2,028 nucleotides of DNA from a plasmid: the NCBI RefSeq assembly GCF_058153355.1, contig NZ_JBLWLY010000003.1. One strand, written 5' to 3'. Of this stretch, positions 1 to 2,009 are shown one piece after another; the stretch's first letter is position 1, and each line of letters opens with the position of its first letter. The notes under the pieces were generated by a model. It was given only the letters and a program-made list of their open reading frames with translations. It had not been told where the DNA came from and did not search any database. The translations under genes and the position numbers were made by a program.

Positions 1-441
1 ATGAGCAAGGACACCCAGAGAATCACCCAGATTAACGATCAAGGTGAGATTGTTGGCGGCTTCGTCGCGGTAATCAGACCCAAGCAAAAATCGTCATTTC
101 AGAGGCATTTCACTATGAACCAAGACGCATTAAAGATCCTCGCTAAGGAGCTAACGGGCGAGCAATTTAAAGTTCTAATGCTCATGCTCGCTGATCTGGA
201 TTACGAGAATTTCATCCAAATTGCACAGGCTGATATAGCGGATGCATTGGAGATGCAAAAGACCCACGTAAGCCGCGCTGTTCGTGCTCTTCTTGATGTA
301 GGCGTGATCTTTGAAGGTCCGAAAGTAGGTAGATCCAAAACCTATCGGTTGAACGAGCAATTCGGCTGGAAAGGAACAGTAAGCAATCACAAAAAAGCCC
401 TTAAAAACGGCCTCAGCGTTATACAGGGCGGCAGAACCTGA
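1..441 (+). CDS. Putative plasmid replication initiator, winged-helix HTH, RepL-like (function tentative)
   Basis: Intact 146-codon ORF beginning with ATG at position 1 and ending with TGA at 439-441. The central segment (LTGEQFKVLMLMLADLDYENFIQIAQADIADALEMQKTHVSRAVRALLDVGVI) has the pattern of a MarR/winged-helix recognition unit. Overall length and layout resemble small RepL-family replication proteins (assignment from memory of the family, not from a search). It is paired with a relaxase gene as in small plasmids. An alternative internal start exists at ATG 115-117, preceded by AGAGG at 101-105. Confidence 0.6.
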   Translation: MSKDTQRITQINDQGEIVGGFVAVIRPKQKSSFQRHFTMNQDALKILAKELTGEQFKVLMLMLADLDYENFIQIAQADIADALEMQKTHVSRAVRALLDVGVIFEGPKVGRSKTYRLNEQFGWKGTVSNHKKALKNGLSVIQGGRT

Positions 442-451
442 TCTCTGGAAT

Positions 452-476
452 GCCGCAAATGACGTCACTTTGCGGC
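452..476. terminator. Intergenic hairpin between the convergent rep-like and mob genes; candidate bidirectional terminator or protein-binding palindrome
   Basis: GCCGCAAA (452-459) and TTTGCGGC (469-476) are perfect reverse complements, flanking a 9-nt loop that contains the palindrome TGACGTCA (460-467). It sits in the 63-bp gap between the two stop codons. There is no clear U-tract on either side, so an intrinsic-terminator call is tentative. Confidence 0.4.
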
Positions 477-504
477 GTTAGCCCTATCCTGCATCGCATC
501 AAAA

Positions 505-1473
505 CTAACGCTCCATACCACCCATGCCACGCGATCGCGTCTGTCGCTGTTTTTCACGTTCAATACGCTGCTGTTTTTCCTTTTCCTGGTTTTGCTGCTT
601 AAACCGCTGAGCCATCATCAGGATTTCGGTCATCTGCTCTCTGGAAAGCCCCTTAAAAGGCTCTGTAACGCTCTGTAGGCGTTTCTGCTGCGCATCCATA
701 GTCTTCTGTAGCTCACGCGCTCTTTTTGCGTTCTGGGCGCTCTGAGAGGCCATAGCGATGGTTCCTGCAAAGCCATCGTTCACTGCGTGGCTTAGACGTT
801 TGGCTATGGCTGCCTGATCTTCCACGTCTTTGGTGAAAATGCCCTTCCGCAATACACGCGGCTCCAGCGCCTCCGGCGAGATCGATACCTGGCTACGGGT
901 GCCACGGTTTATCGATTCGTAGTAGTGCTGAACTGTCTGATGCGTGGCGCGGCTTCCCTCGATGCCGCGCTCAAGACCCAGTTTTTTTACTGATTCAGCG
1001 TAGGTGCTCTGATCTTCACGCATCTTTGACCGCCCGCCAATAAACTCTTTCGCGGACAGCCGTCCATCCTGCGTCAATGGCACCACGAACGCAGACAGGT
1101 GCGGGGTGGCCTCGTCCCGGTGAACCACCGCCGCCACAACACGATCCTTCCCGTATTTCTTCTCCAGCCATTGCTCAGAGCGGGCGAAAAACTCCGCCTG
1201 CTGCCGTGGTGTGGCCTCTTTCCACCACTCAGGGCTTGCTGTCATAACGTATTCAACGGCCAGTACCGCATCTTTACGGCGTTTTTCCGGCAGCAGCTCC
1301 CGCACACGCCCCATTGCCTGATCCGTTGATTTGGACACAGAGCAGTAGTTTTCTGGTGTCCGTTCAGCGTTAGCGTTCGGCGTCTCACGCTCTCGGTAGC
1401 AGTGCTGCAACGCGCTGGCCACGCTTCCCATTCCCGTCAGCTTTTTGCAGCGCATTATCGCGTAGTTCGCCAT
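505..1473 (-). CDS. Plasmid mobilization relaxase, Mob_Pre / MobV family
   Basis: Minus-strand ORF with stop TAG (complement of 505-507). The N-terminus MANYAIMRCKKLTGMGSVASALQHCYRERETPNANAERTPENY matches the Mob_Pre N-terminal signature (YA-x-R-x-KK ... H-x-x-RE ... N-x-N). An internal HRDEATPH segment resembles the metal-binding H-x-DE-x-x-PH motif of this family. The C-terminal ~70 residues are Q/K/E/R-rich and coiled-coil-like, as in MobM-type relaxases. I chose the start at ATG 1471-1473 because a six-G run (complement of 1477-1482) lies 3 nt upstream as a Shine-Dalgarno; the ORF track's longer start at 1492-1494 has no visible RBS. Confidence 0.85.
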   Translation of the reverse strand: MANYAIMRCKKLTGMGSVASALQHCYRERETPNANAERTPENYCSVSKSTDQAMGRVRELLPEKRRKDAVLAVEYVMTASPEWWKEATPRQQAEFFARSEQWLEKKYGKDRVVAAVVHRDEATPHLSAFVVPLTQDGRLSAKEFIGGRSKMREDQSTYAESVKKLGLERGIEGSRATHQTVQHYYESINRGTRSQVSISPEALEPRVLRKGIFTKDVEDQAAIAKRLSHAVNDGFAGTIAMASQSAQNAKRARELQKTMDAQQKRLQSVTEPFKGLSREQMTEILMMAQRFKQQNQEKEKQQRIEREKQRQTRSRGMGGMER

Positions 1474-1539: not shown

Positions 1540-1567
1540 CACTATCAAGATGATAGTGTACTCACTA
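1540..1567. other. Candidate oriT / relaxase operator: nested overlapping inverted repeats upstream of mob
   Basis: CACTATCA (1540-1547), AGA spacer, TGATAGTG (1551-1558) form a perfect 8-bp-arm inverted repeat. TAGTG (1554-1558) also pairs with CACTA (1563-1567) across loop TACT, giving mutually exclusive alternative hairpins. MobV-family oriTs (for example pMV158) are known to lie just upstream of the mob gene and to consist of overlapping inverted repeats with the nick site in a GTG-containing loop; here the segment sits ~70 bp upstream of the mob start. On the minus strand TTGATA (complement of 1544-1549) could serve as a -35 for the mob promoter. Confidence 0.45.
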
Positions 1568-1735: not shown

Positions 1736-1803
1736 AATCAGGCAATGAATATCGCTTTTGAAAGAGCAGGAACCGCTCGCCGCAGACTCATGACCGAACG
1801 TAG

Positions 1804-1826
1804 TGAGCGAATGAGCGAGGAAGCGG
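1804..1826 (+). repeat. Short tandem direct repeats TGAGCGA / TGAGCGA / GAAGCGGA (iteron-like)
   Basis: TGAGCGA occurs at 1804-1810 and 1812-1818, followed by the degenerate GAAGCGGA at 1819-1826. The same GAGCG core recurs in the opposite orientation at 1719-1724 (inside the hairpin loop) and at 1775-1779, and in direct orientation at 1926-1930. Confidence 0.3.
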
Positions 1827-1832
1827 AATTTC

Positions 1833-1868: not shown

Positions 1869-1962
1869 TAAAAAACGTTGGTATTCAGAGCTAAACCGCG
1901 CGCACGCGTTATAAGATACAGAAGGAGCGATAAAAAAACGTATGTATGGCGAGGGGTTACAT

Positions 1963-1968
1963 TTGACA
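1963..1968 (+). promoter_or_regulatory. Consensus -35 hexamer TTGACA abutting the tandem operators
   Basis: Exact TTGACA at 1963-1968. AATAAT (-10-like) hexamers lie in the centre of each downstream palindrome (1977-1982 and 1998-2003), but spacing to a canonical -10 is not ideal, so the promoter geometry is uncertain. Confidence 0.3.
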
Positions 1969-1970
1969 TA

Positions 1971-2009
1971 GTTACCAATAATGGTAACACTGTTACCAAT
2001 AATGGTAAC
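1971..2009. promoter_or_regulatory. Two identical 18-bp palindromic operator-like sites (GTTACCA-ATAA-TGGTAAC), centre-to-centre 21 bp
   Basis: Copy 1 is 1971-1988 and copy 2 is 1992-2009, identical at 18 of 18 positions. Each has 7-bp arms (GTTACCA and TGGTAAC) around ATAA. A 21-bp offset is two helical turns, the typical arrangement for cooperative binding of a dimeric HTH protein on one DNA face. Confidence 0.55.

Follow-up and report, generated by a model that had tools for sequence, protein, structure and literature searches.

Does a 2-kb plasmid whose annotated genes are a relaxase gene and a presumed regulator carry a replication initiator at all? The question is raised by a stretch of plasmid DNA of 2,028 nucleotides (the window; contig NZ_JBLWLY010000003.1 of NCBI RefSeq assembly GCF_058153355.1), whose first open reading frame (ORF), here called rep, encodes a protein of 146 amino acids (aa) that RefSeq names "MarR family transcriptional regulator" (WP_024192735.1). 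A first-pass annotation of the letters alone had read this protein as RepL-like, and had offered the alternative of a MarR-type regulator on a plasmid without a recognisable initiator, which would replicate by an RNA-primed or host-dependent mechanism or not be autonomous. We find that the ORF very probably encodes a replication initiator (Rep) that is also its own repressor, built around a single winged helix-turn-helix (wHTH) and belonging to the superfamily of RepL, the pHW126-like Reps and pKL1 RepA. This reading, drawn from sequence comparison, follows from homology that includes proven initiators, from selection, from the sole-gene status of relatives, from an exchange of replication cassettes, from a conserved cis layout and from co-variation between the protein and its putative sites.

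The window is an entire circular plasmid, since megablast aligns it at 100% identity over 2028 bp with NZ_CP091776.1 and others, and end to end at 99.7-100% identity with plasmids of 2028-2033 bp from E. coli, Shigella flexneri and Klebsiella. Because it is circular, bases 1900-2028 are the DNA upstream of rep, and 1495-2028 are the intergenic region upstream of both divergent genes. The RefSeq annotation counts two genes, rep and mobV, and the non-coding DNA amounts to 534 bp, oriT included. We see no alternative replicon, because mobV is the only other gene and a search of the window against Rfam at E<=1 gave neither RNAI nor any other RNA family; the positive control, a ColE1-like plasmid (L018), gave RNAI at 80 bits.

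The ORF is a real gene under strong purifying selection. Compared with its homologue on the 1507-bp plasmid NZ_CP069656.1, the protein is 92% and the DNA 79% identical, and 77 of the 96 nucleotide differences fall at third codon positions; the proportions of differing non-synonymous and synonymous sites (pN 0.045, pS 0.85) give a pN/pS of 0.053, with synonymous sites near saturation. The reading frame delimited in the first-pass annotation is thereby confirmed exactly, by the ORF list, the RefSeq coding sequence (CDS) and selection alike. One near-identical plasmid, NZ_CP063339.1 (2033 bp, 99.9% identical), has its rep ORF annotated as 62 aa (189 bp) under the PGAP name "replication protein", probably owing to a frameshift or an assembly indel.

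Homology to studied initiators is clearest with RepM of the Klebsiella plasmid pIGMS31 (2520 bp). A profile built from 136 family members scores RepM at 61.3 bits, pKL1 RepA at 31.5 and the RepL of Bartonella pKM19s at 10.3, the best of 800 shuffled controls reaching 7.7 bits, and the query alone finds RepM by BLASTP at E 3e-8. A 258-bp origin depends on RepM supplied in trans, and the protein also binds iterons and inverted repeats, regulates its own expression and relaxes supercoiled DNA (bioRxiv 10.1101/2022.12.05.519187). More generally, RepM, RepR and the pHW126 Rep have been reported to be needed in trans for the origin, to autoregulate and to relax supercoiled DNA in vitro, and both theta and rolling-circle intermediates have been reported for pIGMS31. 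The authors of the work on pHW126, pIGRK and pIGMS31 regard their wHTH Reps as distant relatives of pSN2-type RepL, whose replication is itself poorly characterised; the query therefore falls within a known, loosely defined superfamily.

The connection to RepL itself appears when the whole family is considered. At E<=1e-3, a profile search against 1.84 billion representative proteins, in clusters at 50% identity, yielded at least 3175 cluster representatives, and at the stricter E<=1e-10 there were 1194; nearly all are of 140-200 aa. Among 136 diverse members, 56 (41%) match the Pfam RepL family, PF05732, at E<=1e-3, the best at 7e-16, and in the matches that we examined individually RepL spans about 80-130 residues, as against about 30-50 for MarR and other HTH models. 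The homologues on Bartonella pKM19s (35% identical to the query, 29.8 bits) and on a Bacillus thuringiensis plasmid (47%, 25.7 bits) lie above the PF05732 gathering threshold of 20.3 bits, and a 92%-identical homologue lies below it (15.8 bits). Aligned by hhalign with a PF05732-positive proteobacterial RepL clade, the family profile reaches 89.5% probability and E 2e-6 over 113 columns. This alignment extends beyond the HTH on both sides, pairing the family's N-terminal TGE with the clade's invariant T44-G45-E46 and its C-terminal YRLNPxFGWKG with (W)YFINPNFxFNG, so that TGE, the wHTH and a C-terminal (Y/F)xxNPxFxxxG are all common to the family and RepL. The query carries slightly degenerate versions, QGE (14-16) and YRLNEQFGWKG (115-125), and thus differs from RepL in having QGE for TGE and NE for NP; it shares with RepL a similar size and the single-domain layout. 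In a Foldseek search against viral models, ranks 2 and 41 went to proteins that bear the name RepL and rank 7 to a crAss-like "replication protein"; the top PHROGs match of the query is "replication initiation O-like" (3.7e-7). A bona fide proteobacterial RepL scores only 10 bits with the family profile. Within the superfamily, the pHW126-like and pKL1 branches are closer to the query than classical RepL is.

Searched on its own, the query has as its best Pfam matches DUF7343, HTH_Crp_2, HTH_27, Phage_rep_O, MarR and MarR_2, each at 17-20 bits and below its gathering score. MarR gives 17.4 bits against a cutoff of 24.6, and MarR_2 17.5 against 27, with about 30-50 residues aligned; the best NCBIfam match, to a phage O N-terminal domain, gives 20.6 bits against a cutoff of 45.5. 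It is on account of such sub-threshold Pfam and NCBIfam matches that annotation pipelines call the Rep protein MarR-like. Database names for the family include MarR family regulator, helix-turn-helix domain-containing protein, hypothetical protein, lipoprotein, biotin operon repressor and Rha-like regulator; the name "replication protein" occurs on two truncated family copies.

AlphaFold2 (AF2) gave an unusable model from the single sequence, with a predicted local distance difference test score (pLDDT) of 37, and we used instead a model from the alignment of 136 homologues (pLDDT 88.8). In this model a three-helix bundle, with the recognition helix at residues 87-100, is followed by a beta-hairpin wing (103-117) and one further short helix (127-135), and residues 1-38 are extended and non-helical. 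The winged-helix core described in the first-pass annotation is borne out by this model, as well as by the sub-threshold Pfam wHTH matches at residues ~50-118. MarR proteins dimerise through long N- and C-terminal helices that flank the wHTH, and the structure prediction, a check proposed along with that description, yields the core without any such helices. Rep_3 initiators such as RepA of pPS10 and pi of R6K have two winged-helix domains, WH1 and WH2; the query differs from them, and from lambda O, in having one, and it reaches the threshold of neither family. It has no Rep3_N match in Pfam, one relative scoring 17.7 bits against a cutoff of 22.4, and no Pfam match to HUH or Rep_trans rolling-circle initiators.

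The extended N-terminal stretch holds, in its motif, the conserved positions G15 (90% of the family alignment) and E16 (84%), and we infer that residues 1-38 may be the part specific to initiation. In pIGRK, an N-terminally truncated in-frame product, RepR', represses replication and gives no initiation (PMC6854812). An analogous start may be written into some members of the present family: Shine-Dalgarno (SD)-like GAGG, AAGGAG or GGAGG lies 6-12 nt before an in-frame Met39 in the window (100-117, codons 34-39) and in three relatives (L006, L007 and L009), is retained in members with differing amino acids there, and in relatives L008, L009 and L012 the internal Met39 is the start of the RefSeq CDS. 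A short Met39 product could be a repressor form like RepR'; that only 64% of family members have Met in column 39 counts against a conserved internal start.

Upstream of rep, the layout is conserved in about 12 loci from at least 6 genera, the hosts being E. coli, Klebsiella, Arsenophonus, Oceanisphaera and Bartonella, together with three distant metagenomic members chosen arbitrarily. It opens with the motif AGATACAGAA, which stands unchanged 111-124 bp ahead of the rep start codon in all seven distinct plasmids measured and is found also upstream of the Arsenophonus rep. The motif is present in Bartonella and Oceanisphaera although the flanks do not align, and distant family members have the variants ATATACAGAAG and CAGATACAGAAAG. 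AGATACAGAA is a candidate initiation site, where the DNA would be melted or nicked. We also considered its likeness to the mapped RepM nick region of pIGMS31 (AGAT..CAGAA) and rejected it, as the match needs a 3-nt gap and the opposite orientation. Between motif and promoter lies a spacer whose sequence varies among relatives and whose length is kept at ~40-50 bp. A strict sigma-70 consensus scan found no full promoter, so that the putative rep promoter is assigned from its perfect -35 box and its conservation.

The two palindromes that follow are set 21 bp apart centre to centre, or two helical turns, and stop ~19 bp short of the ATG; in the first of them, the right arm, TGGTAACAC (1982-1990), is an extended -10-like element. 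Two tandem palindromes of 7-4-7 form are kept in most relatives examined, and Oceanisphaera and high-GC loci have one clear or imperfect site. The protein probably acts as a dimer on these palindromic operators, which overlap its own promoter. Residue 90, in the recognition helix, co-varies with the half-site: His (QKTHVSR, in the window and in Arsenophonus L019) goes with GTTACCA, and where the residue is Asn, as in 7 other loci, the half-site is GTTATCA or AGTTATCT. This pairing of residue 90 with half-site base 5 fits, and would be predicted by, direct readout by the Rep protein, in a sample that is small and not phylogenetically independent.

The smallest relatives indicate how little DNA accompanies this gene. 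By tblastn there are complete circular plasmids of 1454-1597 bp in which a homologue 92% identical to the query is the only gene annotated, and a 1306-bp plasmid with a 73%-identical homologue. These relatives of 1306-1597 bp, known as complete, circular records from many strains, keep the conserved motif and the palindromes. We left a 1265-bp record with a 100%-identical protein out of the minimal plasmids, because it is a linear partial assembly. The mobV gene is absent from the 1.3-1.6-kb relatives, in which it is dispensable for replication. Comparison of NZ_CP069656.1 with pKL1 (NC_002145.1) is particularly instructive, as the two have ~820 bp of non-coding backbone in common at 87-95% identity and differ in one block, comprising the rep gene and 166 bp upstream, which encodes the query's homologue in NZ_CP069656.1 and RepA in pKL1; one replication cassette has been exchanged for another of the same kind. 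Alignment of the window with NZ_CP069656.1 sets in exactly at 1913 and continues across promoter, gene and downstream hairpin, marking out a cassette of ~0.6 kb, and this cassette is found on other backbones too. Contigs of 1-6 kb carry almost all the homologues, which is what one would expect if the protein were a plasmid Rep, not a chromosomal regulator. Both NZ_CP069656.1 and pKL1 are typed Col(MG828) despite their unrelated-looking rep genes, so this type reports the backbone and not the initiator.

System by system, the likenesses and differences are as follows. With the pHW126-like group, represented in our comparison by RepM of pIGMS31, homology is clear, and both are small plasmids of Enterobacterales made of a REP and a MOBV module, with a wHTH protein (autoregulating in that group) and, in a layout that agrees in part, a cis order of a site for single-strand initiation (ssi), then a conserved region, Rep repeats, promoter and rep. 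The RepM-bound repeats of pIGMS31, GTTATAG-ATTC-CTATAAC, have the 7-4-7 form of the window palindromes and a similar half-site. RepM is longer, at 201 aa against 146, with a variable N-terminal extension of ~60 residues that is absent here, and the pHW126 and pIGRK Reps, unlike the window protein, have an additional C-terminal coiled coil. The window has two 21-bp palindromic repeats over the promoter, whereas pHW126-like plasmids have four ~20-bp iterons and separate inverted or direct repeats; pIGMS31 lacks the AGATACAGAA motif, and G+C is very low in pHW126 and its close homologues, compared with ~50% overall in the window plasmid. Reading through the window, we noticed neither direct-iteron arrays nor DnaA boxes, no systematic search having been made for the latter.

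The E. coli plasmid pKL1 (1549 bp), for which PMC3832669 cites repA as the Rep and places binding sites upstream of the gene, shows weaker but real homology. Its RepA (158 aa) is of similar size, is the sole annotated gene of its ~1.5-kb plasmid and matches the family profile over the HTH, the wing and a Y-x-L-(D/N)-P-x-x-W-K-G motif; its pairwise identity to the query is 23% over 90 residues (E 0.007). The two plasmids also share palindromic sites upstream of the gene and the ssiA-like element described below. They differ in that pKL1 RepA has another N-terminus, without the TGE motif, and in that pKL1 uses the palindrome GTTGTCGCATCC as binding site and lacks AGATACAGAA.

This shared element of the window (1756-1830) has an unannotated counterpart, ~80% identical, in at least 5000 enterobacterial plasmids, is conserved in pKL1 and NZ_CP069656.1, and lies ~85-160 bp upstream of AGATACAGAA. 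In the ColE1-like plasmid L018 it occupies 2546-2617, with RNAI at 1914-2015 (Rfam) and rop at 2683-2877, that is, beyond the point where the ~0.5-kb RNAII primer should end and immediately ahead of rop. Such is the position of the PriA-dependent primosome assembly site ssiA (PMC3167613). Folded as single-stranded DNA (ssDNA), the region is no more stable than shuffled sequence (z -0.7), and its identification as ssiA-like consequently rests on homology and position, not on structure. In pHW126-like replicons an ssi likewise lies upstream of the conserved region. In rolling-circle and strand-displacement replicons a single-strand origin is arranged in this way, as an ssi on the rep-sense strand, upstream of the origin, and the element is likely a lagging-strand or single-strand origin. 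The antisense pair RNAI/RNAII, which a ColE1-type replicon has ~0.5 kb upstream of its origin, is absent from the window by the Rfam search; the ssiA-like element alone is common to both.

Taken together, these features suggest a scheme in which Rep dimers would bind both 18-bp palindromes on one helix face, between the -35 box and the start codon. Judging from the position of the sites and from the RepM and RepR experiments, such binding would occlude the promoter, and Rep would thus limit its own synthesis. The same complex may, through the N-terminal (T/Q)GE region, open or nick the DNA at the adjacent spacer and AGATACAGAA and so start the leading strand, and the ssiA-like element, once displaced, would prime the complementary strand through the host PriA primosome. 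The lack of an HUH motif and of a strictly conserved Tyr argues against a classical covalent rolling-circle mechanism, as does the occurrence of theta besides rolling-circle intermediates in pIGMS31; no histidine column of the family alignment reaches 75% conservation. A bolder proposal, which we consider unlikely, is that the family forms a large subfamily of minimal initiators of ~146 aa with one winged helix and no nuclease, helicase or ATPase domain, for which ~115 bp of cis DNA, made up of AGATACAGAA, the spacer and both palindromes, would suffice in plasmids of 1.3-2 kb, whose chemistry lies outside the textbook theta, rolling-circle and strand-displacement modes, and which might possess a second layer in the form of the Met39 short product as negative regulator. 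Rep melting or nicking at the invariant motif, followed by PriA/ssiA priming, could then give mixed theta and rolling-circle intermediates as in pIGMS31.

Several observations weigh against an initiator. The query itself has no match to PF05732 even at E<=10, so that the RepL-like assignment made in the first-pass annotation, which stands at the level of superfamily and function, fails the Pfam search proposed there as a check: this gave no RepL, and only sub-threshold MarR and other wHTH matches. No replication-family threshold is reached by the query at all, Phage_rep_O giving 19.6 bits against a cutoff of 28.7, and the similarity to RepM and pKL1 RepA lies mostly within the wHTH, a fold common to many regulators. 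MOB-suite assigns no replicon type to the window plasmid. The Rep protein has no nuclease, helicase or AAA+ domain that would account for the chemistry of initiation, and the family has no strictly conserved Tyr (at Y115, 81% of members have Tyr and 8% have Phe, as does RepM). Bartonella tribocorum pKM19s (3.3 kb) carries, besides a 172-aa homologue of the query (300-818) with the same upstream signature, a 198-aa RepL (1210-1806), and with two genes of the RepL superfamily one may not be the initiator there; pKM19s may be a co-integrate of two replicons, or the two genes may divide the work. Finally, we found no experiments on this Rep subfamily in the literature searched.

What else might the protein be? 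The alternative put forward alongside the RepL-like assignment was a MarR-like regulator. In the form weighed here, it would be a MarR or other wHTH repressor, acting for example on its own gene or on mobV, with replication host-dependent or RNA-primed through the ssiA-like element. This account has on its side the RefSeq name, a size of ~146 aa with a central winged helix as in MarR, best Pfam matches to regulator-type wHTH models, palindromes that overlap the promoter as a plain operator would, and an ssiA-like element of ColE1 type. All the MarR and wHTH matches nevertheless stay below gathering scores and are short, the dimerisation helices are missing from the model, Rfam offers no RNA that could prime replication within the small non-coding space, and a lone repressor would be an odd sole gene for plasmids of 1.3-1.6 kb. 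The homologues RepM and pKL1 RepA are, moreover, initiators, and the TGE region shared with RepL lies outside the DNA-binding domain. We judge this account quite improbable, and equally so the suggestion of a plasmid devoid of a recognisable initiator.

Palindrome binding would also suit an accessory protein that controls copy number or binds centromeres as TubR and ParR do, initiation being left to something else. TubR and other centromere-binding wHTH proteins do appear among weak sequence matches in the Protein Data Bank (PDB), Pfam gives a weak match to ParA-HTH (HTH_54), and pKM19s has its second RepL gene beside the homologue. Such centromere-type matches are far below significance and much weaker than the profile score of RepM, the ~1.5-kb relatives contain neither a partner NTPase nor any other gene, and high-copy 2-kb plasmids normally need no partition system, all of which makes an accessory role very improbable. 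MobV relaxases, for their part, nick DNA at a specific site, and given a plausible oriT hairpin on the plasmid and a wHTH protein without a recognisable nuclease motif, MobV might double as a rolling-circle initiator at oriT and leave only regulation to the 146-aa protein. This we regard as extremely improbable, because the circular relatives of 1306-1597 bp keep rep, motif and palindromes without mobV, and because the rep cassette also travels with other backbones.

An autoregulating Rep initiator is therefore the reading that we retain, and with it the answer to the question is an ordinary one: the plasmid has a Rep, a finding that is real and fairly ordinary. The plasmid is already in databases, and the RepL/pHW126-like/pKL1 superfamily and autoregulating wHTH initiators have been published, although the surveys of small E. 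coli plasmids in the literature that we searched gave no description of this plasmid type. What is new is modest, namely that a very common subfamily is Rep and not MarR, that it has an origin/operator signature, and that it escapes replicon typing. Mislabelled and without a replicon type, such plasmids look rep-less in surveys of replication and mobility; the combination of Rep with the AGATACAGAA-plus-tandem-palindrome signature would allow very common plasmids of 1.3-3 kb to be typed. At ~0.6 kb the cassette is among the smallest replicon cassettes and offers a simple system for how a single-winged-helix protein starts replication.

Features of the window, with positions on the 2,028-bp circle and the basis of each assignment
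Feature	Position	Strand	Basis
rep gene, 146 aa (ATG at 1, stop at 439-441, included)	1..441	+	ORF list, RefSeq CDS
N-terminal region, residues 1-38, with (T/Q)GE motif at 14-16	1..114	+	AF2, conservation, hhalign
Winged helix-turn-helix, residues 39-120	115..360	+	LD(F/Y)EN motif at 66-70, N70 invariant; recognition helix 87-100; wing GPKVGRSKTYRLN
Recognition helix, residues 87-100, KTHVSRAVRALLDV	259..300	+	residue 90 co-varies with half-site base 5
Hairpin AATGCCGCAAA / TTTGCGGCGTT, between convergent rep and mobV	449..479	.	inverted repeat I22 of repeat finder
mobV relaxase gene	505..1473	-	Pfam Mob_Pre 5.7e-45, NCBIfam MobV 1.8e-47, RefSeq CDS
Inverted repeat CACTATCA-AGA-TGATAGTG, then TACTCA, ~50-70 bp upstream of mobV	1541..1565	+	ssDNA hairpin predicted, both strands
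ColE1 ssiA (n'-pas)-like single-strand initiation element	1756..1830	+	homology and position
Invariant motif AGATACAGAA	1914..1923	+	identical 10-mer in relatives
A+T-rich variable spacer, motif to promoter	1924..1962	+	GC 0.39 at 1901-2000
-35 hexamer TTGACA, putative rep promoter	1963..1968	+	read from sequence, same place in relatives
Palindrome 1, GTTACCA-ATAA-TGGTAAC, putative Rep dimer site	1971..1988	+	repeat finder D3/I1
Palindrome 2, GTTACCA-ATAA-TGGTAAC, between promoter and start codon	1992..2009	+	repeat finder, relatives

Outside the rep cassette proper, the hairpin between the two genes is probably a bidirectional terminator, and the segment that contains it (448-503) is 89% conserved in NZ_CP069656.1, in reversed orientation. 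The inverted repeat upstream of mobV is probably the MOBV oriT, as pIGMS31 has at the equivalent place an inverted repeat followed by ATAGTGAGTATAC, an arrangement that the window resembles. Between this putative oriT and the ssiA-like element lies a perfect 10-bp inverted repeat, TCGTCAAGGG ... CCCTTGACGA, with a 22-nt loop (1694-1735).

Two further observations concern the traffic of these sequences among plasmids. Some plasmids of 2.0-2.4 kb align with the window at 91-94% over ~61-1875, leaving the conserved motif, the promoter, the palindromes and the first ~20 codons unmatched, which suggests recombination that swapped the operator/origin along with the Rep N-terminus. In Klebsiella plasmids of 110-240 kb, an unannotated stretch is 64% identical to residues 101-145 of the protein and is probably the remnant of an integrated small plasmid.

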